From Armatimonadota bacterium (GTDB lineage: Bacteria; Armatimonadota; UBA5829; DSUL01), in contig JBDHZC010000003.1 in NCBI GenBank assembly GCA_039811685.1, positions 128,001-192,000 on the forward strand: a stretch of DNA of 64,000 nt. Direction: 5' to 3'. Positions 52,275 to 62,599 of the stretch are shown here, in pieces. The position numbers were made by a program, and so were the translations under genes. The notes under the pieces were generated by a model. It saw nothing but the letters and a program-made list of their open reading frames with translations, searched no databases and was not told where the DNA came from. The stretch's first letter is position 1, and the number at the start of each line of letters is the position of its first letter.

Positions 52275-54887
52275 ATGACCGACTACGAAGTTCTGGATAT
52301 CTCTGGTTTTTGCAGTGCGGGGGCAGACGTGCGTACGCAGGTGGACTATGAGCCTGCCGCCTGGCCGACGGACTACCGCGGAATTCCTTTTCGCTTCGTT
52401 CCAGATATGAAGTCGTGCTTTGTGTGCCTCGGGCGCCGGCCGGATAGCTCAGCGGTGGGCGCCAGCAAGATATCAATCCCCATCGGCAAGACAGCCAGAA
52501 ACGTCATCTTCGCCCACGCGATGCTGGAGAGTTTTCTGGAGCGCGGAGACAGTCTTGGCCGTACTGTGGGAATCTACACGTTCGTGTACGCGGATGGAAG
52601 CAGCGTCGAGGCGCCAATTCGGGAGCGCTTCGAGATTGCCGCTATTCCAATTCCCTGGGGCTTCCTGCCGTTCGCTTCGCTCCCGGACGGGCGCGACGGC
52701 CTGCACACGCGGGGGCCTGTTCCGCCGGGTGAGGCCGGAAATCGCCAGCAGGAGGTAGGGTTGGGATGGCCCGGAGACTACTATCTGTGGGTCTGGGAGA
52801 ACCCGCGGCCGGAAGTTCCTCTGGATCGTGTTGAGCTGAGAGCCGCCGAGCCTTCGGAGCGTTCACCGGGCCGGGCGGATGCGCTTGGACCGCACAGCCA
52901 GACGCTGGACGAATACGGTAACTTTCCCTTGCCAGGCTTCGTCGTCGGGGCCATCACTCTCGGGCATCTCGACGAGAAGCCGTTTCATCAGAGCGCGGCT
53001 GTTCCTGTGAAGCTGACTCTGCTCAGCCCGGAGCTCGCTCAGAAAAACTTCAACCTCGACGTTACTGTTGATCGAGGTGTCGCAACCTACGTCTACGCCT
53101 TGCCACTGGAGACTCCGGTCGCCTTTCTGGCGAGCGGCCACGCCGGATTCGGCGAGGAACAGAATCTGACAAGTTCGCCTGCGTACGTGGAGATCGCAGC
53201 GACGCCGTCAGCGACTCTCACCGTCAAGCAGGGCGAAGATGAAATTGCACAGGCGAATTGGGGTGAGATCGAGTCCAGGGGCAGCGTCGAGACGGAGCGC
53301 GTCAGAATCGAAGTCATTGAAAGCGGCCGAAACTGGGTGCATACCACCGTTCTGGATGCCGATACCGGAAAACCCGTTCCCTGCCGCATCCACTTTCGCT
53401 CACCACACGGCGTTCCGTACCAGCCGCACGGCCACCACGGGCACGTCAACTCAAATCTCGGAACCTGGCACATAGACATCGGCGGCGACGTGCGCCTGTC
53501 TCAGATTACCTACGCCTACATTGACGGAAAGTGTCAGGGCTGGCTACCCCGTGGTGAGGTCATCGTGGATGCCGCGCGGGGGTACGAATACGAACCACTG
53601 CGCCAGACTGTGACCATCCAGCCTGGACAAAGAGAGCTGACTCTTCGCCTGAAACGCAAGCACAACCTCAACGCCGAGCGCTACTTCAGCGGGGATACGC
53701 ACGTCCACTTTCTGTCTTCGCAGGGCGCGCTGCTGGAAGCGTCCGGCGAAGACCTGGACGTCGTCAACCTCCTTCAGTCCCAGTGGGGACATCTGTTCAC
53801 CAACACCGAAGAGTTCACCGGGAAGCCCCACGTTTCGGGTGACAAAGAGACGATCGTCTATGCAACGCAGGAAAACCGCCAGCACATTCTCGGGCACCTT
53901 ACGCTGCTCGGTCTGAAGGAGCCTGTCATGCCCTGGTGTTCTGATGGTCCGGGCGAGGCCGAAATGGGAGGGAATCTGGAAACGACCCTGTCCCGCTGGG
54001 CGGACGTATGCCACGCTCAGGGTGGCACCGTCGTTATCCCTCACATGCCCAATCCGAACGCAGAGCCCGCTGTGCTCATAGCGACAGGCCGCGCAGACGC
54101 TGTCGAGATGATTGCGCAGAACATGTTCTTGCACGTGGACTATTACCGCTATCTGAACGCCGGATACCGCTTGCCCATCACAGGCGGGACCGACAAGATG
54201 GACGCGGGTGTTCCGGTGGGTCTGTACCGCACGTACGCCTGGATCCCGCCGGACGAGGAGTTCACTTATGACAACTGGTTGAAGGCCCTTCGCAGCGGAA
54301 ACACCTTCATCTCCGGAGGACCGCTGCTGCGCTTCAAAGTGAACGGACAGACGATGGGTTCAACCATTCATCTTGGCAGGGATGGGGGCACTCTCGACGT
54401 GGAGTGTAGCGCGTCGAGCATCATTCCTGTCCATACGCTGCAGATTGTGCAGGGCGGGGAGGTAGTCGCGCATACGCAGGAATCTGCGGGTGCGAAAGAA
54501 TTGACGCTGCGCGCGCAACTGAAGATAGACGGATCCACCTGGCTGTGCGCGCGCTGTGGGGGACCGGATTATCACATCGAATCCGCACCAGCAGGAAAGG
54601 CAGTGCGGCACTTTGACTCGTGGCGGCGCGCGGTGTGCGCGCATACGTCTCCCGTTTACATCCAGGTAGGCGAAACCTACGACGTCTGTAGCCCCGCTTC
54701 ACTCCAATACATGCTGACGCTTGTGGATGGCAGCCTGCAGCACATTCGTCGCGCGCCTCAGTGGAAGCCCGGGCACGTCACGCATCACCACCACTCCCAC
54801 GACCATCTAGAATATCTGGAGGGTCCACTGCGCGAGGCGGCTCAGGCCATCCACAAGAAGATGCACGAGCACGGAATCCCGCACTAG
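52275..54887 (+). CDS. CehA/McbA-type PHP-like metallohydrolase
   Basis: Motifs SGDTHVH, ENRQHILGH, GGTDKM and AHTSPVY; His-rich C-terminus. Confidence 0.75.
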   Translation: MTDYEVLDISGFCSAGADVRTQVDYEPAAWPTDYRGIPFRFVPDMKSCFVCLGRRPDSSAVGASKISIPIGKTARNVIFAHAMLESFLERGDSLGRTVGIYTFVYADGSSVEAPIRERFEIAAIPIPWGFLPFASLPDGRDGLHTRGPVPPGEAGNRQQEVGLGWPGDYYLWVWENPRPEVPLDRVELRAAEPSERSPGRADALGPHSQTLDEYGNFPLPGFVVGAITLGHLDEKPFHQSAAVPVKLTLLSPELAQKNFNLDVTVDRGVATYVYALPLETPVAFLASGHAGFGEEQNLTSSPAYVEIAATPSATLTVKQGEDEIAQANWGEIESRGSVETERVRIEVIESGRNWVHTTVLDADTGKPVPCRIHFRSPHGVPYQPHGHHGHVNSNLGTWHIDIGGDVRLSQITYAYIDGKCQGWLPRGEVIVDAARGYEYEPLRQTVTIQPGQRELTLRLKRKHNLNAERYFSGDTHVHFLSSQGALLEASGEDLDVVNLLQSQWGHLFTNTEEFTGKPHVSGDKETIVYATQENRQHILGHLTLLGLKEPVMPWCSDGPGEAEMGGNLETTLSRWADVCHAQGGTVVIPHMPNPNAEPAVLIATGRADAVEMIAQNMFLHVDYYRYLNAGYRLPITGGTDKMDAGVPVGLYRTYAWIPPDEEFTYDNWLKALRSGNTFISGGPLLRFKVNGQTMGSTIHLGRDGGTLDVECSASSIIPVHTLQIVQGGEVVAHTQESAGAKELTLRAQLKIDGSTWLCARCGGPDYHIESAPAGKAVRHFDSWRRAVCAHTSPVYIQVGETYDVCSPASLQYMLTLVDGSLQHIRRAPQWKPGHVTHHHHSHDHLEYLEGPLREAAQAIHKKMHEHGIPH

Positions 54888-55061
54888 ACTTCTGCGGAGA
54901 GTGCGCCGCTTACCATCCCTCCAGGTTTCCCAACCTGGAGGTCCGCCGGGCAGGAGGTGAGGACGGGTGGCTGATCGAAGGAAGCTCTAGGTATTTCATC
55001 CCTCCAGGTTTCCCAACCTGGAGGGATGACCCTGCCTTGTCCGGGTTCTGGAAGTCTCAAT

Positions 55062-55698
55062 GTCCAACCCTCACATTCCGAAATACCTACGGTGCAGGCA
55101 GTTGTAGTGGCTGGGATCGGTCCTATACGTGGTAGTCAGCGCGATGCGTGAAAACAGCGAGGCACTCGTCGCGGGGCTGGCGTTGGCGGCTGTGCTGCAG
55201 TCCTCCATCTTCTACTTCCAGCTTTGGCGGCCACGCCTGGAGCGCATGCGGCTGCTGCAGGGCCGTAGTGTTCTTAGCCAATGGGAACTGGCGGAGCTTT
55301 TTGCCATCGCCGGCGCATCAGGGCTGTCAGTAGCGGCGAACTTAGCCGTGATCGGCAGATACCTTCACGTGCACTCTGGTTGCCTCAGGCCGACAGATAG
55401 ACTGGCCGACTTATACTGCGTGTCCCCTTTTGCCATCAAGTACATAGGCTTAATAGACTCCGACATCTTTCGCTGCAAAGAAGCGATACGGGACCGGGTC
55501 GAGCGCCAGCACCGCTTTCGTACCTGTCTGGTGGGGGATGTAGTGGAGCAACTGCCGCTTTCCGTACTGCTAAGCGGCCTTGAGCAGCAGAGCGTTCGCC
55601 TGTGAACTGAGGCTGTAGGTATTTCGGGATTTGAAGGTTGGACGTGAGAACCATCACATCTCTGGGGAGTTACGGCTCCAACCTGGAAATCCCGAAAT
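55062..55698. repeat. REP-like family C, three arms: GTAGGTATTTCGGGATTT..AGGTTGGAC
   Basis: 55062-55090 and 55615-55643 are inverted (26/29 identical). 55677-55698 pairs with 55621-55642 as a hairpin. Confidence 0.85.
55129..55605 (+). CDS. Hypothetical membrane-anchored protein, candidate immunity cargo (start may be 55144)
   Basis: N-terminal TM segment; fills almost the whole interval between the family C inverted repeats. Confidence 0.6.
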   Translation: MVVSAMRENSEALVAGLALAAVLQSSIFYFQLWRPRLERMRLLQGRSVLSQWELAELFAIAGASGLSVAANLAVIGRYLHVHSGCLRPTDRLADLYCVSPFAIKYIGLIDSDIFRCKEAIRDRVERQHRFRTCLVGDVVEQLPLSVLLSGLEQQSVRL

Positions 55699-55710
55699 GA
55701 GGGGGACGCC

Positions 55711-55750
55711 GTGAAATGGAAGAGCATTGACACTGGCGCAGGCTGCTACT
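55711..55750 (+). pseudogene. 5' stub of a second Y1/RAYT-like transposase (copy 1)
   Basis: GAGGGG site and GTG start give MKWKSIDTGAGCY; the same DNA recurs at about 57307 and 58518. Confidence 0.5.
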
Positions 55751-55793
55751 GCGTCTTACTGCCTCCAGGTTCGGAACCCTGGATGGATGAAAA

Positions 55794-55963
55794 GACTCGA
55801 TCTTTTCGACTGCAGAGCAGGGGGACCAACCGGATGGTTCAACCCTTACATGGGGGAGAACATGGAGTACAATGCTCTGGGCACGCTGTGTGGATACAAC
55901 GTGTTCCAATCCTGTGACAATTGTTGTAAGAGCCTGTGCGGCTGTGTCTTTGGACACTGGTGA
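55794..55963 (+). pseudogene. Headless Cys-rich C-terminal fragment, probable Rhs toxin tail
   Basis: Reads ...YNALGTLCGYNVFQSCDNCCKSLCGCVFGHW-stop; begins at a repeat boundary and its stop is 1 nt from the next ATG. Confidence 0.45.
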
Positions 55964-55964
55964 C

Positions 55965-56324
55965 ATGAGAATCTTACGCGTTTTTCTTGTCTTGCTCACC
56001 GCCGGCATAGCCGTTTGTGGTTGCGCTCAACGGTCTCGCCCGCCGTCCGGCGATATTCCATACTACGTGACGCTTGTCGGCCACCCACGTTCAGACGTGG
56101 ACCGAATCATGAGGCTGGGCGGTGGCCAGTACGTGCGTAGCTACAAATCAGAGAAGGAGTTTGCCGCGTTCAAGCGTACGATCTCTCCGCTGACGGACAA
56201 GACGCTGGACGGGGAGGTTATGCAGTACCACCTTGGAGGCGACCTTGGCAATGGGGTCTTACTGGTCTTCTTGGACCACCGGGGCACGGTTACGGCCATT
56301 CATTGGGCCGTCGACCGATTCTAA
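55965..56324 (+). CDS. Small lipoprotein, candidate immunity protein
   Basis: Lipoprotein signal MRILRVFLVLLTAGIAVCGC; TGAcATG coupling to the upstream tail. Confidence 0.7.
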   Translation: MRILRVFLVLLTAGIAVCGCAQRSRPPSGDIPYYVTLVGHPRSDVDRIMRLGGGQYVRSYKSEKEFAAFKRTISPLTDKTLDGEVMQYHLGGDLGNGVLLVFLDHRGTVTAIHWAVDRF

Positions 56325-56415
56325 GGAGCCAAATGGAGAGTTGGTAGCCAGAGCCTACCCCAGCGGAGGAGGGCAGTACTACTTCTTCGACTGGCTGGGC
56401 TCGACCATCGCGCAT
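56324..56415 (+). pseudogene. Rhs core fragment
   Basis: EPNGELVAR...GQYYFFDWLGST matches the Rhs YYxxDxLGS motif; no start codon; truncated near a family A repeat. Confidence 0.7.
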
Positions 56416-56558
56416 GCGCCATTAACGGAAGGGACACGCACGGATCGTCTGTATTTCCATCCCTCCAGGTGTCCTCACCTGGAGGAGGCGACGGGACGGA
56501 CTTAGGTACGTACGCCTGGTAACCCGCTGGGAGCCAGCGGGACCGGAGGAGGCTTTCA

Positions 56559-57300
56559 GATGCTGCGGGAATGGCAAACCTCACCAGCGTGTCGACTGAC
56601 TGAAACTGAAATTCCCGCAGCCACTCCGGACTCACCGTGCAGCCGGCGGCTGTGGTATCATAGCCTCGTGAGCAACCAGCGCTACCGGAACAGCTACATC
56701 GACGGGTGCTCCCACTTCGTAACAGCGAGCGTCGCCGGCTTCGCGCCGCTTCTGGCGTCCGATACCGGGCGGCAGACGGTTCTGCGATCGTGGAGCCACT
56801 GCCGGGGCAGGTATGGTGTCCTGATCGAGGGCTTCGTGATCATGCCGGAGCACATTCATGTCCTTGTGCGAGGGAAGGCGAAGCCTGTCGAACAATTCAT
56901 CCAGTACAGCCTGCAGCGTTCGGCACGTCATCTGCGGGAAGTATATGTCGCCGCGGCACGGGGTGGTGACCCGGCTGCGGCAGCGCTGGTGGAGCACATA
57001 CACAGTCTGGGTCGGGTCTGGAAGGAGCGGGCGCGCTGCGTGGCGCTGTCGCGGGCCGAAGATGTGCTGGGGAAGCTCGAGTACATGCACAACAACCCGG
57101 TGAAGCGCGGGCTGGTGGTGGCGCCGGGCCAGTGGGCGTGGTCGAGTTGGGCAAACTACTACGGCGGTGAGCCGGTGCTGGAGATCACGCCTGCTCTGGG
57201 CTTCGACGAACCGGTGACCCTCGCGGCGTCGCAGGTGGCTGCGGGAATTGAGGCCAGTGGAGGACGAGGGGCATGAGAAGTCTGTCATTCCCGCAGCATC
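56559..57300 (+). mobile_element. RAYT element bounded by inverted family B hairpins
   Basis: Ends read GATGCTGCGGGAATGGCAAAC and GTCTGTCATTCCCGCAGCATC. Each end is itself a hairpin (56559-56621 and 57236-57300). Confidence 0.75.
56668..57276 (+). CDS. REP-associated tyrosine transposase (RAYT; HUH/Y1, IS200/IS605 superfamily)
   Basis: Motifs HFVT, VIMPEHIH (HUH) and KLEYMHNNPVKRGLV...WAWSS; TGGTATCAT 6 nt before the GTG suggests a leaderless mRNA. Confidence 0.92.
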   Translation: MSNQRYRNSYIDGCSHFVTASVAGFAPLLASDTGRQTVLRSWSHCRGRYGVLIEGFVIMPEHIHVLVRGKAKPVEQFIQYSLQRSARHLREVYVAAARGGDPAAAALVEHIHSLGRVWKERARCVALSRAEDVLGKLEYMHNNPVKRGLVVAPGQWAWSSWANYYGGEPVLEITPALGFDEPVTLAASQVAAGIEASGGRGA

Positions 57301-57306
57301 AAAAAG

Positions 57307-57410
57307 TGGAAGAGCATTGACACTGGCGCAGGCTGCTACTATTTCACCAGCGCCTGCTCGGAGTGGCTCCCAACCTTGGACCTCCCGGACGGATGCGACA
57401 CAGTGTGCGT
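57307..57410 (+). pseudogene. 5' stub of a second Y1/RAYT-like transposase (copy 2, longest)
   Basis: WKSIDTGAGCYYFTSACSEWLPTL resembles the Y1 N-terminal YFxT...WLP motif. Confidence 0.5.
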
Positions 57411-57456
57411 TTTCAAAGTATTGACTGCCGGCGCTTTAATACGAGGGAGGCCGAAG

Positions 57457-57579
57457 GTGAAGAGAAGAAATGAACGGCTATGGGACCAGATTCTGCTGTG
57501 GCTTATGCTGCTTGCCATGCTGGCAATTGCGGCGTCAATCATGGTACCTGCCTACCGCCTTACGCTTGAAAGTCGGTAG
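57457..57579 (+). CDS. Short single-TM peptide or truncated cargo gene
   Basis: GGGAGG ribosome-binding site, GTG start, basic N-terminus followed by a hydrophobic helix. Confidence 0.4.
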   Translation: MKRRNERLWDQILLWLMLLAMLAIAASIMVPAYRLTLESR

Positions 57580-57799
57580 TGCACCCCAGGTAGAGCCGTC
57601 AGGCTCAGGAGCCGGCGTCCGGCTCTGCGGCGACGGACATTGATTGGGAGTGGTCAAGCGCCAGAGCGTATGCCAGGCAGCAGACGGTGGAGACCGACGA
57701 TAGCCTTGACGCACTTAGCGGGGGATGAGACTATGACTACGACCTTTGGCCTCCAGGTTGGGAAACCTGGAGGGATGAGGTAGCAATCATTATGGACGA

Positions 57800-58207
57800 G
57801 TGGGGGCTGTGACGACGGCGACAATTGACCAGGACGAGGCCGCCAAGCTGGACGCTCTGCAACGCGAGTTGAGTTGTTCTCGGCGACTCCGTTTGCGCTC
57901 CGTACTTGTTGCTATCTTCTTCTTTCCGATTGTCCTGCTGGTATTCTTCATTGAACGCCGACCCGCGGTTTCGCTGCTGATGTTTCTGATCTTTGTCGTC
58001 TACGGGACCAATGCGCTACAGCCGGTGGCCTCTCACTCAGCGCTTCGGATTCTGAAAACGCTACGACCTTCTCGTGATAGCCGCACAGTGAGTGTTCTGT
58101 TCGATGCTATGCAGTATTACTCTCTCGCACCAGCAGCCAAGGAACAGCTTATGCGACTGCTTTTGGAGGGCGACGGTTATGATGCTCACGATCAGCAGCC
58201 ACCTTGA
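57800..58207 (+). CDS. Hypothetical 2-TM protein, candidate immunity cargo
   Basis: Starts about 20 nt inside repeat A5; two hydrophobic helices; followed directly by Rhs debris. Confidence 0.6.
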   Translation: MGAVTTATIDQDEAAKLDALQRELSCSRRLRLRSVLVAIFFFPIVLLVFFIERRPAVSLLMFLIFVVYGTNALQPVASHSALRILKTLRPSRDSRTVSVLFDAMQYYSLAPAAKEQLMRLLLEGDGYDAHDQQPP

Positions 58208-58217
58208 CGTTGCCAAG

Positions 58218-58440
58218 TGGTATGACCCGGCGGGCAATCGGCGGCCAGCCAGCGACCACAGGTACAATACGTATAACGCGGCAGACATGTTGCTGGCGAA
58301 CGGCCTGAACGGCGATACGCTCTCCGGAAGTGGGCGATCCAACGTCTGGGATTCGCAGAAACGGCTTGCGTAGAACCGCCACCTTGGGTGGCGTCATGAC
58401 GCAGTGCATCCTCGACGGGCAGAGCGTAGTGCAGGAGATA
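58218..58440 (+). pseudogene. Degenerate Rhs/YD-repeat fragment
   Basis: WYDPAGNR...TYNAADML...WDSQKRL, then in a shifted frame TLGGVMTQCILDGQSVVQEI. Confidence 0.7.
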
Positions 58441-58444
58441 TTTA

Positions 58445-58616
58445 GACGCTGCGGGAATGGCAAATCTCGCCAGCGTGTCGGGCGACTGGAAACCGAAATT
58501 CCCGCAGCATCAAAAAGGAGGGGGACGCCGTGGAGTGGAAGAGCATTCAGATGCTGCGGGAATGGTGAATCTCACCGTTGTGACGAACGACTGGAAACCG
58601 AAATTCCCGCAGCATC
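58445..58616. repeat. Two tandem family B hairpin (REPIN-like) units
   Basis: 58445-58511 and 58550-58616 read GA(C/T)GCTGCGGGAAT...ATTCCCGCAGCATC, with spacers related to 56559-56621. Confidence 0.9.
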
Positions 58617-58652
58617 AAGAGCGCCGGATGAAAGGCTGCGCTTGCAGACCGG

Positions 58653-59318
58653 TCACGGCGAGGACGGCCGCAGGCGCCATTCTCGTTTGATATGCTTTGA
58701 GAGGATGACACGGTACGCGGGATGGTAGGCTCTCGCGTAAACCTCGGTGTGGCTGACTGCAGGATACCCGGCCTTCTTCATTCGCGTGTCCAGCTCTTGC
58801 CAGTCCTCGAACGTTATCTGCATTATCCGGCGCTTTTTCAGTCGCTCTCCGAGAAGCTGCCACTGCTTGATAAAGCCGGTTTTATCTGCGCGGAACTCGT
58901 TTGCTGATGCGAGGAACGCCGCCAGCACGGCTTCCTCCGAAATCCCCTGTGCTTTGGCCACTGCCAGGTTCAAGCGAACGAGTCGGCCGTCGGGCCTGAG
59001 CGCGACGATGAGCTTCTCGCCGGGATCGGGCTTGCGGAGGCCGTTCCACTCTCTGTCCAGCCAGGCGCGCGCGCCCTCAGGGTCGGATACAGCGTGTTCG
59101 CCGCCCATATTCGCCTGAAACAGCCACTTGTAGGCATCCTGCACCTGCATCGAGGGCGTGCTCTTCCATGCCTTCACATACCAGTCCAGGCCCGGTGCGC
59201 AGGCGACAGCACCGGGCAGAATCAGGCAGAAGAGTATTGCTGTCAAGAGAGGTTTCGTGTTGACCACGTTTTTGCTTTTCGCTTTGGAGCTCGCTGGAAC
59301 GAACGGGTCGAGGGACAT
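58653..59318 (-). CDS. Conserved hypothetical exported protein
   Basis: GGGAGG ribosome-binding site; motifs MQVQDAYKWLFQ...GGEH and VSHTEVYARAYHPAYRV. Confidence 0.75.
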   Translation of the reverse strand: MSLDPFVPASSKAKSKNVVNTKPLLTAILFCLILPGAVACAPGLDWYVKAWKSTPSMQVQDAYKWLFQANMGGEHAVSDPEGARAWLDREWNGLRKPDPGEKLIVALRPDGRLVRLNLAVAKAQGISEEAVLAAFLASANEFRADKTGFIKQWQLLGERLKKRRIMQITFEDWQELDTRMKKAGYPAVSHTEVYARAYHPAYRVILSKHIKREWRLRPSSP

Positions 59319-59469
59319 GCGCCCTCCCACCTGTCTACTTTCTTGACCTTCGCCATCTGGAATGTGTTTTCATCCCTCCATGTTTCCCAACCCGGAGGCC
59401 CATCGCGCGGGCAGGAGGTGAGGTCGAGTGGCTGGAGAAAGTATCTCTCGACCGCGCAGCACTGCCCGT

Positions 59470-62400
59470 TCAGCCAGCCGAAATCGCGGCCGTGTTGTTC
59501 TCTTCGTCGCGCTCAAATACCGCGTCATCCGGATCGAGCCGCACGCGGAGATGACTTCTGCTCGCACCTTCGGGCAAGGGAAGGCTGACGACAACCGTGC
59601 TCAGGGTCAGGTTGCGCGGGCTTGCCAGCGCCTTCACGGGATGCGACGAAAGCTGTTTCCATGCCCCGCCGCTTTGCTGCTCCAGCGCGACTCTGAAGGC
59701 AGAGGACGGTGCGTTCCCAATGTTGTGCACAGTAATGTATAGCTTTTGTCCTCTAACTTGAATATCACGAGTCGCGATAGCCAGATCCGGCGCCTTCACT
59801 GGAATTGTGGCGGCCTCATCGAGGCGAAGGTCAATCTCGTACTCCTTGCCTGGGGGAAGCTCAACGTAAACTGGCTGCGCCCGGTGCAGAATTTTCATCT
59901 TCTGGCGCGGACCCCAAGCGTACCGGTGTTGTCCTGCGTGCTCTCCGCCCAGGACGCGGCCTGTCATCAGGATGTATGTCCCGGGCTTCAGCAGCCACGG
60001 ACGCAGAGCGATCTTCTTCGTCTCCTTCCAGAACGAGTACATCCGTATGCGCAGGCGCTGGGGTGTGCTTTCGGTCACCAGAGCGGCAAAACCGGTGTCG
60101 GGTGTGACGTAGGTCACGGCAAAAGTTGGAGTGGACGCGTCGCGCAGCCCCTCTACTGCTCCGGTGTAGGCGCCAAAGACCGTGAGCGCATTATTCAGCG
60201 CTGCGCGGTCAGTGGACAAAACCTCGGTTGTCTGCAACTCCAGGTTGGTTCTGTTCGCCTCGGCAGTTCGTTGAAAGCTGCGCATATAGCGGTCCAGATT
60301 GTAGTCGGTCCGGTAAATCTGAGCGGGATCACCAAAGCGTCGCGTGTACTCGTCATAGACCCGCTCTCCCGTGAGATAGCGATACAGCGCTGTCTTGTTG
60401 GGATCGGCCATGCTCGCCATCGCCAGATTACAGTACTCAACCGTTCCTGGCGCGGGATTTCCTGAAGGCAGCGGCCCGAGCGTCGCCCCATCCATCAGAA
60501 GCTGAAAAGGCTTCAAAAACGTCCTGTCTCCACTTAGCGCATAGGCGCACAGGATTGCGTCGTGGATCATTGTTCCCATCTGCCCGTAGTAGTTGCGTTT
60601 TTGGTCCCACCACGGATATCCGCCGGGAGGAGAGATGGATCCGGACGGATACCAGAGGCTTTCAGGAGGCAGGCCGGGCAGCTTCGTATCGCTTTTCGAG
60701 CTGGTCGCTGCGGCCCAACCCTTGCACCATCGGAGGAACCAGTCTCTGGCCACCGGATCACCCTGCCATGCCTGCCAGATGAGGTGCTTCATCGTGCGCG
60801 CGTTGTAGCCGGTATCACCTCCGGCCTGCGGCTGGGTGTGTACCCCGTTCCATCCATACTCGCTGGACTTGAACCGCGGATAGCCTTTCGCGTCAATACC
60901 CAGAAAGCGCTCAATAATCGTCTTGCACGATCTCATGTTGCGCTCCACCCAGAGCGGGTCCCCATAGCGCAGAAAAAGCATCGTGGGCAGCGTATCCGCA
61001 GACGGCTCAGCCGAGTGCTCCACATCCCCCACCTTGTCAAAACCATCCTTCAATACAGACTTCCAGACGCCATCAGCAAGCTTCTCAATGCCGGCCTGGG
61101 CTTGTGTGGCTCCAGTCGAGATTGCGGCGATTTGCATCCAGGTGCGCATCAGCTCGACATCGTCTCCCCAGCCACCACCAAGCTGTCCATCCGGCGCCTG
61201 GCGCTTCTCGAACCAGACATCCATAAGCCGCACCTGCCGCGCGTAGGCTTCGTGAAGATAAGCCGCCCATGCAGGATGACGCTGCGTATCTGCGTTCAAC
61301 TCCTCTCCCCACGGAATCGTCTCGCCCGTGTACTCCCGAAGGATCACATTTTCTGGCCACAGCTTCTTCAGATCACGCATCCAGCCCACAGCTTCACCAA
61401 CCACCTCGTTGTTACCGCCCTCCTTTCCGTCCCAGTAGCGGTAGCGGGCCTTGTACAGCAGGGCCTTGTAGTAGAAGGGATTGTTCTCACGACCCAGAGC
61501 CACAAGTCGCGACGCCGATATTTTGCCGCTGCGCGCCATTTTCAGGTCCGCAAACCATCCTGATGCTGTGGCCAATGCGGATATCGCAGGGTTTTCCGGA
61601 CTCTTGCTCAGCAGCCGCTGCCAGGCCCGCGCCACTTCGGCTAACTCACCTGTCCGGTCGCTCTCCTGAAAACGCAGGTCGCCTGCCACATAGGACCACC
61701 CGGCCATTCCGATCAGCGTGTCCGCATGGGCCTGGAAATCGTGCAACGCGTCGGCTATCTGACCCCTGTTGAACTTATCAATCGCCGCCGAAGCCCAGGC
61801 AGGGCCATCTCCGGGGCTGTCCAGCGCCAGCTCTCTTCCTTCCCGGCTAATAGGGAGACGTGGAAGGCTTTCGAGGTATTCAGGCGTTCCCGCTGCAGGT
61901 GTTACCCGTTCATAGACGCGCACGTTGTCTGCGTACAATCCAGCCCAGGTCACAATACCGGCGCGGTCAAAGCCGGGTCCACCCAGTGGGTCCCGCACCG
62001 TTGCGTGAACGAGAACTTTCCCGTTGACCCTCAGGGTGAGCTCCCGGCCCTCCTTGGTGGCGGAAATGTGGTAGGTTTCCCCCTGCCGGATCAGCACCTT
62101 CGGATGCTGGTCAACCACGCTGAACCCGGGCCCCACAATCTGATTCACGCGGTTATTCTGGCCGCCGAACGCCAGCAGATACCTGTATCCGTACTCTGAA
62201 CTGGCCGCCAGTCCCGCCGACAGATCAACCGGCGGATAGCGAGGGTCAGCCTCCGCGTCAAACTCAAGTCGTACGTCGGGCTTGAATCCGCGGTCAATTA
62301 TCGCAAAGACGCCGCTGCCGGTGAGATGCAGGCGTCCGTTTTCAATGCTGATCTCTCCGTTCACAGCCTTCCATTCCAGACCAACTTCGTCCCTTTGAAA

Positions 62401-62517
62401 ATCGTCACTCCAAACCAGTTTCCATTGCGCATTATCGTGCCTGATCTCCGTCTGAGAGAGCGCTGCGAACGGATGGAGCCACATTACTAACATCAGAAGA
62501 TAAAGAGCACTCTTCAT
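59470..62517 (-). CDS. Large secreted protein: LamG/ConA-like N-terminus, helical core and CARDB-like C-terminus; probably glycan-active
   Basis: Signal peptide; motifs LVWSDDF and GGWGDDVE; C-terminal PDLAI...VHNIG...LDPDDAVFERDEENN. Confidence 0.7.
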   Translation of the reverse strand: MKSALYLLMLVMWLHPFAALSQTEIRHDNAQWKLVWSDDFQRDEVGLEWKAVNGEISIENGRLHLTGSGVFAIIDRGFKPDVRLEFDAEADPRYPPVDLSAGLAASSEYGYRYLLAFGGQNNRVNQIVGPGFSVVDQHPKVLIRQGETYHISATKEGRELTLRVNGKVLVHATVRDPLGGPGFDRAGIVTWAGLYADNVRVYERVTPAAGTPEYLESLPRLPISREGRELALDSPGDGPAWASAAIDKFNRGQIADALHDFQAHADTLIGMAGWSYVAGDLRFQESDRTGELAEVARAWQRLLSKSPENPAISALATASGWFADLKMARSGKISASRLVALGRENNPFYYKALLYKARYRYWDGKEGGNNEVVGEAVGWMRDLKKLWPENVILREYTGETIPWGEELNADTQRHPAWAAYLHEAYARQVRLMDVWFEKRQAPDGQLGGGWGDDVELMRTWMQIAAISTGATQAQAGIEKLADGVWKSVLKDGFDKVGDVEHSAEPSADTLPTMLFLRYGDPLWVERNMRSCKTIIERFLGIDAKGYPRFKSSEYGWNGVHTQPQAGGDTGYNARTMKHLIWQAWQGDPVARDWFLRWCKGWAAATSSKSDTKLPGLPPESLWYPSGSISPPGGYPWWDQKRNYYGQMGTMIHDAILCAYALSGDRTFLKPFQLLMDGATLGPLPSGNPAPGTVEYCNLAMASMADPNKTALYRYLTGERVYDEYTRRFGDPAQIYRTDYNLDRYMRSFQRTAEANRTNLELQTTEVLSTDRAALNNALTVFGAYTGAVEGLRDASTPTFAVTYVTPDTGFAALVTESTPQRLRIRMYSFWKETKKIALRPWLLKPGTYILMTGRVLGGEHAGQHRYAWGPRQKMKILHRAQPVYVELPPGKEYEIDLRLDEAATIPVKAPDLAIATRDIQVRGQKLYITVHNIGNAPSSAFRVALEQQSGGAWKQLSSHPVKALASPRNLTLSTVVVSLPLPEGASRSHLRVRLDPDDAVFERDEENNTAAISAG

Positions 62518-62599
62518 AGCGCCTAAGGATACCACATGGGAGACGCACAGTTCTCTATCTCGGGGAATGTGGTTTCAAGCGGTATCACAAGTCGTCAGC

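Follow-up and report, generated by a model that had tools for sequence, protein, structure and literature searches.

The 64,000-nt window analyzed here (contig coordinates C3:128001-192000 of the Armatimonadota genome G000, an assembly of 3.42 Mb in 15 contigs that is 97% complete) contains a 4.6-kb locus in which small open reading frames (ORFs), truncated Rhs core fragments, repetitive extragenic palindromes (REPs) and a gene for a REP-associated tyrosine transposase (RAYT) lie between a CehA/McbA-family metallohydrolase gene on the plus strand and the minus-strand genes 58653-59330 and 59470-62535. On balance, with a probability put at roughly 55%, this locus is read as a relic of rhs orphan modules in which genes in the immunity position survive and REP/RAYT elements mark points of deletion or rearrangement. 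The lineage would once have possessed classical rhs "orphan" toxin-immunity modules, of which no whole rhs gene would be left. The survivors would be the immunity-position genes o55965, o57800, and perhaps o55129, keeping scraps of their neighbors (upstream a toxin tail, downstream the 45-78 codons with which the next orphan core begins), while the gaps are occupied by three REP-type families, an intact RAYT gene (RAYT1) with its REP B hairpins, and remains of another RAYT type (RAYT2). The repeats, or recombination at the repeats, may have eroded and perhaps reshuffled the modules, as suggested by the fact that every Rhs fragment stops exactly at a repeat. Comparison genomes are labeled G001, G002, G003, G004, and so on, with G004 belonging to the same family as G000, and the phylum-wide comparison set comprised 300 other genomes.

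Rhs remnants and genes in the immunity position

The Rhs fragments and the small ORFs of the locus are as follows.

55129..55605, plus strand: o55129, a 158-aa orphan ORF with two hydrophobic segments (hydropathy; codon score 0.04); candidate immunity gene with no adjoining Rhs scrap
55784..55963, plus strand: headless Cys-rich ORF tail of 59 codons, coupled to o55965 and ending 1 nt before it; putative remnant of a toxin C terminus, assigned by position only
55965..56324, plus strand: o55965, a 119-aa ORF with an N-terminal signal/lipobox-like segment (codon score 0.06; self match only); candidate orphan immunity gene
56323..56463, plus strand: Rhs core stub 1, ~45 aa, cut by REP A; 58-62% identical to residues ~1592-1637 of a 1797-aa RHS protein of G004 and to five orphan copies
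57457..57579, plus strand: o57457, a 40-aa ORF with one hydrophobic segment (codon score -0.07); the weakest gene candidate
57800..58207, plus strand: o57800, a 135-aa orphan ORF with two transmembrane segments in the immunity position, an orphan core start following directly as in G004; candidate orphan immunity gene
58203..58440, plus strand: Rhs core stub 2, ~78 aa, with a frameshift near 58360-58370, cut by REP B; 74% identical to a 1247-aa RHS protein of G004 (E 3.5e-18)

On homology to the Rhs proteins of G004, and thus beyond the motifs by which the original prediction had recognized them, both window stubs are Rhs-derived, and each begins where orphan modules natively start. Stub 1 matches six places in G004 at 58-62% identity, and stub 2 matches three places in the G004 rhs locus at 58-78%, namely the 1247-aa RHS protein (residues ~895-994) and two downstream orphan ORFs, its homology beginning at the same residue as that of the G004 orphan fragments. 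In a six-frame search, 54 residues of stub 2 were found in 23 of the 300 other phylum genomes, with G004 as the best match. The Rhs profiles of Pfam and NCBIfam detected neither stub at E values up to 10, and Pfam RHS_repeat does not score them. No Rhs-associated core (PxxxxDPxGL region) with a toxin domain was found, both stubs ending well before the PxxxxDPxGL region. The predicted lack of a full rhs gene in the window was confirmed and extends to the whole genome, where TIGR03696 gave 0 matches and PF05593 one weak match. With the G004 Rhs proteins as queries, exactly three remnants were recovered in G000: the two in the window and a third at C10:2398-2676. A repeat marks the exact end of all three, and a small ORF with hydrophobic segments immediately precedes each.

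The arrangement of these remnants corresponds to that of rhs loci in relatives. In G004, one locus encodes the 1247-aa RHS-repeat protein and, after it, a 140-aa product with long hydrophobic stretches; two orphan ORFs then repeat the last part of the core. The adjoining locus encodes the 1797-aa RHS protein, and an array of five or more orphan modules (core fragment, differing C-terminal end, small gene) converges with it. The G004 genes between a toxin and the next core encode 117-240 aa, and three of the five listed are rich in hydrophobic stretches as judged by eye. The native order of Rhs core, toxin, small (often membrane) immunity gene and next orphan core fragment recurs in G004 and 13 other Armatimonadota genomes; several of the 17 rhs loci collected from these 14 genomes have 3-6 core fragments. 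Like the immunity genes in the G004 arrays, o55965 and o57800 end within 0-2 nt of a Rhs stub. The original prediction that the small genes carry scraps of former neighbors thus holds, the architecture being that of rhs orphan modules. Separately, an IS3-type element (two transposase ORFs, assigned by eye) at C1:2203911-2205066 of G004 splits an immunity-position gene in an rhs orphan array.

All four small ORFs lie on the plus strand as predicted and have hydrophobic 19-residue windows. In o55129, o55965, and o57800, no other of the six frames scores better than that of the ORF, and the G+C content of the three codon positions follows the coding pattern (GC1 > GC2 < GC3). A word-based search of 5.8 billion proteins returned self matches only for these three ORFs, and o57800 had no credible match among the 300 other phylum genomes (two weak ones, E 0.003 and 0.005). 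These three ORFs belong to no Pfam or NCBIfam family and have no relative in the 17 rhs loci by tblastn. An Atlas search placed them with unnamed clusters, the nearest named one for o55965 being BamE-like at 0.88, a lead only. For the toxin tail, no significant homolog was found in 21 stretches (the 17 rhs loci and four around homologs of the C11 ORF described below), the best E value being 0.6.

Indirect support for an immunity role comes from a fourth gene of G000. Between a REP B and a REP A at C11:46092-46568 (minus strand) lies an intact 159-aa membrane ORF with no adjoining Rhs scrap. It shares 34-46% identity with an immunity-position gene of a G004 array (split there by the IS3-type element), its homologs stand directly after a Rhs C terminus at three of five sites outside G000, and the family occurs in arrays of G004 and G094. 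We infer an immunity function for the small window ORFs, which selection against the Rhs toxins of neighbors would have preserved.

REP families and their RAYT partners

The six A, four B and three C repeats of the original prediction were all found where it had placed them. REP A, a 34-nt palindrome, is present at 54914, 54997, 55762, 56458, 57750, and 59371; REP B, a hairpin of ~75 nt with an 11-14-bp stem, at 56553-56627, 57238-57306, 58440-58517, and 58545-58618; and REP C as three arms at 55062-55090, 55615-55643, and 55677-55698. As single-stranded DNA, REP A, REP B and the REP C doublet fold far better than shuffled sequences (z -2.7 to -8.0, with 0-1 of 200 shuffles as good), in support of the predicted hairpins, and a lone REP C arm does not fold by itself (z -1.0). 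REPs and the hairpin-forming REP doublets known as REPINs characteristically carry a GTAG or CGTC tag at one end, and REP C starts with GTAG. Apart from the two outermost copies of REP A, which are described with the flanks, the repeat features and the RAYT genes are as follows.

54994..55031, no strand assigned: REP A, full palindrome with a 15-bp stem (fold -17.2 kcal/mol, z -8.0)
55058..55094, minus strand: single REP C arm, by repeat comparison
55615..55698, plus strand: REP C doublet, a REPIN-like hairpin starting with GTAG, with 22-nt arms 91% complementary (-21 kcal/mol, z -5.4)
55695..55750, plus strand: module D, which accompanies REP C and duplicates the opening codons of a RAYT2-type gene; its identity to the RAYT2 locus at the 5' end is 92%, and copies also lie on C10, C11, and C5
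55762..55790, minus strand: REP A, by repeat comparison
56458..56485, plus strand: REP A variant with loop GTGTCCTCAC; the identical variant with its flank occurs on C10
56553..56627, plus strand: REP B hairpin upstream of RAYT1, its arms shared with the flanks of RAYT1 orthologs in G004, G030, G034, and G035
56668..57276, plus strand: RAYT1, an intact REP-associated tyrosine (HUH/Y1) transposase gene, by NCBIfam profile, PDB 4ER8 alignment and orthologs
57238..57306, plus strand: REP B hairpin spanning the RAYT1 stop codon, with paired arms at 57239 and 57288 (fold z -2.7)
57304..57389, plus strand: N-terminal fragment of a RAYT2-type gene, a pseudogene piece 84% identical over 86 nt to C5:24518-24603
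57702..57795, plus strand: 94-nt module consisting of a 48-nt flank and REP A; the sequence preceding C11:46092-46568 is ~90% identical
58440..58618, plus strand: two REP B hairpins with a module D fragment between them, by repeat comparison and folding

The predicted intact HUH/Y1 transposase is likewise present. RAYT1 matches the NCBIfam profile REP_Tyr_transpos (NF047646) over its full length (positions 1-146 of 146, E 1.9e-21; 76.5 bits against a curated cut-off of 80). With Pfam Y1_Tnp it scores only 20.2 bits, below the cut-off of 23. Its HUH and Tyr (Y..NPV) motifs can be aligned with those of E. coli TnpA-REP, PDB 4ER8 (E 0.001). Its orthologs across the class are 47-57% identical. In the window, REP B hairpins flank RAYT1 on both sides; REP B arms also adjoin the RAYT1 orthologs of G030 and G034 and, on either flank, those of G004 and G035. 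By this sequence association, REP B is the partner of RAYT1, in a pairing kept across the class of Armatimonadota. By the same kind of evidence, REP C is the partner of RAYT2, and REP A is without a RAYT of its own. RAYT2, at C5:24067-24576, shares only 30% identity with RAYT1. The REP C doublets on its two sides (C5:23900-24800) are the unit seen in the doublet at 55615..55698. The first ~15 codons of the RAYT2 ORF are part of a 140-nt unit with at least eight copies in the genome.

G000 has one intact RAYT1 and one distant RAYT2, and relatives have up to 14 RAYT matches per genome. Decayed RAYT1 pieces were found at C1:222784-223088, C11:44540-44698, and C11:796-880, the first of these being a RAYT1 element that extends from hairpin to hairpin and is internally deleted. 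Because these transposase genes leave decayed extra copies, the RAYT elements here appear to resemble decaying selfish DNA or insertion sequences more than single-copy domesticated RAYTs.

None of the four RAYT1 ortholog loci (G004, G030, G034, and G035) has Rhs sequences within the fetched span, no REP B arm was found in 31 kb of G004 rhs arrays, and RAYT debris was present in one of the 17 related rhs loci (222 kb from 14 other genomes). In G038, from another family of the class, a REP B-type hairpin and a RAYT1 stub of 22 N-terminal codons (C1:620714-620940) directly follow the immunity gene of an intact 1281-aa Rhs protein; the hairpin is one of nine REP B hairpins in that genome. In the other 16 of the 17 loci, orphan arrays stand without a RAYT; such arrays are common in the phylum and need none.

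Repeat clusters elsewhere in the genome

Genome-wide, 23 REP A copies were listed, along with ~10 full REP B hairpins, roughly 20 REP C arms, and at least eight copies of the 56-nt module D, two of which lie inside the locus. They cluster at about ten sites, next to panC, genes for a kinase-like protein and a methyltransferase, GH116/Usp, NIF3, mutS, csgG, fic, and IS110, and are not specific to Rhs debris. REP A was not found in four same-family genomes, REP B hairpins were seen elsewhere at one locus in G004 and nine times in the 8.2-Mb genome G038, and Rfam gave no match for the hairpins of the locus at E values up to 0.1. The 94-nt module precedes two unrelated candidate immunity genes, o57800 and C11:46092-46568. 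The boundaries of the putative cassettes (A-/A+, A-/B, and C/C.D.A) mix families and orientations, with no uniform pair of left and right ends. An additional idea, that REP A supplies a Shine-Dalgarno sequence and ATG to downstream genes, was dropped because the spacing is 1-2 nt.

The third Rhs remnant lies in one of these clusters. Between tRNA-Tyr and tRNA-Thr(tgt), C10:462-3559 spans 3,098 nt, versus 153-199 nt in G001, G003, and G004, whose tRNA spacers do not align to the insert. The insert contains ~17 REP A/C/D units and a tandemly duplicated stretch of 395 nt (1002-1266 / 1397-1661), in addition to a Rhs core fragment of 93 codons (2398-2676) and two ORFs, one hydrophobic (1706-2413) and one of 71 codons with hydrophobic stretches; no integrase and no att-like duplicate of a tRNA end were seen there. 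This module therefore arrived by insertion, either with the repeats or within an island that later decayed.

A truncation at a repeat border was also found for a gene of another kind. IS110-family elements are known to target REPs, and in G000 a full IS110-family element has a REP B half on one side and a REP A on the other (C11:48123-49590), while a 52-codon N-terminal fragment of the same IS110 transposase (C5:23545-23841) is cut exactly at a REP C. An N-terminal fragment of a short-chain dehydrogenase/reductase (SDR) gene near a REP A on C5 was not counted as a precise junction because its homology ends ~115 nt before the repeat. At C1:221600-224100, just after panB-panC, tRNA-Asn and the genes for a kinase-like (APH) protein and a methyltransferase are separated by three full REP B hairpins and the deleted RAYT1 relic; synteny with four relatives stops right after panC.

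Flanks of the locus and its occurrence in metagenomes

The features at the borders of the locus are as follows.

52275..54887, plus strand: CehA/McbA-family metallohydrolase gene (NCBIfam NF038032, 151.9 bits), the left flank, outside the element
54914..54973, plus strand: REP A with a 27-nt flank, left copy of the bracketing direct repeat, 86% identical to 59371-59434
58653..59330, minus strand: conserved 225-aa gene of unknown function inside the repeat bracket, with 71-72% identical orthologs in G004 and G002
59371..59434, plus strand: REP A with a 27-nt flank, right copy of the bracketing direct repeat, by repeat comparison

A direct repeat of 60-64 nt brackets the entire 4.46-kb block, conserved gene 58653 included, and its 27-nt part occurs genome-wide at 54914-54973 and 59371-59434 only. 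This repeat may be an integration scar or a duplication. The metallohydrolase has a 65% identical ortholog in G004 whose neighbors are not conserved, and the flanks of the 58653 orthologs in G004 and G002 are not syntenic, the G004 orthologs of both genes having other neighbors. A scan of the locus for promoters and terminators gave nothing above shuffles in a telling place.

Metagenomes from activated sludge, bioreactors, and biofilms (12 studies) contained DNA nearly identical to the locus. In four runs, each from its own study, contigs covered the cargo pieces with 0 differences and unchanged local order; contigs break at repeats, so that constant content is what this comparison shows, and long-range order is not proven by it. 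The contig joints listed at repeats have sides of 22-35 nt (one of 62 nt) and match other repeat loci of the genome, for which reason they give no evidence of excision, and no credible joint skipping the cargo was found in the contigs of the four studies. Among the 80 loci kept from 279 metagenome stretches encoding a relative, identity was at most 65%, and none had the flanks or the cargo.

Alternative explanations

The original prediction held that the array was built by the RAYT: REP hairpins would have landed on both sides of immunity genes, and the RAYT would have excised repeat-cargo-repeat single strands and pasted them beside other repeats, producing an integron-like store. Of this proposal, the orphan-module architecture of the cargo stands, whereas cutting and stockpiling by RAYT and REPs are unsupported, 16 of the 17 related arrays being without a RAYT. 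A store of this kind is considered quite improbable, and the same low likelihood is given to a process in which REP hairpins and RAYTs cut rhs orphan arrays, discard the toxin parts and carry repeat-flanked immunity genes to other repeat sites, one of them in a tRNA spacer. It is true that the three Rhs remnants and a fourth ORF of an immunity family are bounded by repeats on both sides, in three separate clusters, but the boundaries mix A, B, and C in both orientations, the same repeats bound housekeeping and accessory genes as well as conserved gene 58653, and the commonest boundary, REP A, has no RAYT, RAYT1 pairing with B and RAYT2 with C. The lineage-specific 3.1-kb insert in the tRNA spacer and the 94-nt module shared by two unrelated candidate immunity genes would fit movement of cargo, yet no cassette occurs twice and the genome holds no donor rhs locus. 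The REP B hairpin and RAYT1 stub directly after an rhs immunity gene in G038 and the direct repeat around the entire locus are also in its favor. Against it are 16 related rhs loci free of RAYT debris, four RAYT1 ortholog loci free of Rhs in the fetched span, and cargo that is identical in the contigs of four studies, with no credible skipping joint. A literature search on RAYTs with Rhs, or with capture of immunity genes, yielded no paper linking them; one paper rich in matches handles REPs and rhs genes as separate items. The original prediction had looked to homologs of the cargo next to rhs toxins, enrichment of the repeats beside Rhs debris, variable cassette content, and excised cassette junctions. 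The window cargo has no homolog anywhere and could not pass the first check; the repeats lie at about ten genome places beside unrelated genes; and the cargo pieces, identical and in the same local order in the contigs of four studies, gave neither variation nor junctions. Were capture nevertheless true, a genome stripped of its rhs weapons would keep scattered, repeat-bounded antidotes, and a REPIN-RAYT system would for the first time have a role in moving cargo.

The bracketing repeat also invites the view that the 4.46-kb block, which has a copy of REP A plus 27 nt at each end, arrived whole, as a circle or foreign fragment, at a pre-existing REP A between convergent genes, carrying decayed rhs modules and the RAYT with it. 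The 86% identity of the direct repeat, the restriction of its 27-nt part to the two ends and the atypical codon usage of the cargo are in line with such an event, which is nonetheless highly unlikely: the block holds gene 58653-59330, whose 71-72% conservation in same-family genomes argues against a foreign origin, the internal copies of REP A, B, C, and D belong to the genome's own families, and an ancestral empty site is not visible in any relative. It is unlikely, too, that nothing here is functional and that the small ORFs are decaying leftovers or chance frames, with no immunity function, in junk DNA where repeats pile up under weak selection. The four window ORFs are without homologs, their codon scores are low (0.04-0.06 for three, negative for o57457), the source gene caller accepted only 71 of the 119 codons of o55965, and stub 2 is frameshifted. 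Set against this, o55129, o55965, and o57800 have the best of six frames and a coding G+C pattern, and these three ORFs (119-158 codons) are unbroken beside Rhs neighbors cut to stubs, as expected if only these ORFs are kept; the C11 ORF, a relative of an rhs immunity family, is intact as well.

A relic of rhs orphan modules, eroded at its repeats, remains the favored explanation, although several observations weigh against it. The two stubs derive from differing Rhs core types, which are not normally mixed in one array. The length of the C10 spacer in comparison with those of relatives indicates that at least one module arrived by insertion, a misfit for pure decay in place. No close relative is available to reveal the ancestral state of the locus. 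The codon scores of o55129, o55965, and o57800 correspond to the 5th percentile of real genes, those of o57457 and the toxin tail resemble non-coding DNA, and the immunity role of the window ORFs is assigned by position alone because they have no homologs. As to the agent, we infer from the borders of the fragments that the repeats made the breaks, through either the RAYT nuclease or ordinary recombination between repeat copies. REP/RAYT elements gather in dispensable DNA, and the repeats most likely eroded the locus rather than built it.

Comparison with known systems

RAYTs are described as REP-flanked and mostly single-copy, and Pseudomonas REPs as numbering hundreds of copies (PMC3390384, PMC5581495). 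The elements studied here resemble the REP and REPIN-RAYT systems (E. coli TnpA-REP and its bacterial interspersed mosaic elements [BIMEs]; Pseudomonas REPINs) in their short extragenic palindromes, hairpin doublets, and HUH/Tyr RAYT flanked by its own hairpins, as well as in the RAYT1/REP B pairing kept in four ortholog loci and in the G038 remnant. They differ in that copies are few and bunched, three families are interleaved, extra RAYTs are decayed, and repeats abut truncated genes.

Orphan rhs modules and orphan immunity are likewise reported as established (PMC3967940, PMC3150448, PMC10539506). As in the rhs orphan loci of Salmonella, E. coli, Serratia, and G004, the junction from immunity gene to next orphan core start is kept, and the fragments are 58-78% identical to those of G004; in contrast to these loci, there is no main rhs gene, the fragments of 45-93 codons end at repeats, and two core types stand side by side.

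Orphan immunity islands either are accompanied by tyrosine recombinases or form when an effector is displaced at a type VI secretion system (T6SS) locus. The locus is similar to such islands (the acquired interbacterial defense of Bacteroidales; arrays of Vibrio cholerae) in that immunity is kept without a toxin, likely the benefit here too, but no tyrosine recombinase was present among the ORFs scanned, and the cargo is unchanged in the contigs of four studies. More broadly, no recombinase family besides the RAYT was detected among 12 ORFs scanned with Pfam and 11 with NCBIfam. Retention of immunity genes without toxins in orphan immunity islands is reported in a preprint (bioRxiv 2025.05.03.651265).

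In the "peel and paste" transposition of IS200/IS605 elements, an HUH/Y1 enzyme acts on single-strand hairpin ends, and the units of integrons are bounded by structured sites. As a mechanism, both are akin to what the original prediction invoked, that is, an HUH/Y1 enzyme and hairpin-bounded gene units; unlike them, the locus shows no uniform left and right ends, duplicated cassette, integrase, or promoter-array layout. By the marks of an integron, a dedicated recombinase is missing, the sites are of mixed kind and orientation, and content does not vary among the four runs from four studies.

Implications

REPIN-RAYT systems, rhs orphan arrays, and orphan immunity are kinds known already, and their meeting in this locus is a new instance. 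If the favored explanation is right, two known processes meet here, in a little-studied phylum from activated sludge: rhs weapons are lost while orphan immunity is retained, and dispensable DNA accumulates REP/RAYT elements. The locus also shows a REP B/RAYT pair that is conserved across a class of Armatimonadota. The point worth following is that gene truncations coincide exactly with repeat borders (three Rhs fragments and one IS110 copy), together with the repeat-laden insert in the tRNA spacer. If RAYT activity breaks or moves such pieces, this would give a concrete genome-remodeling role to REPIN-RAYT systems, the function of which is still debated.

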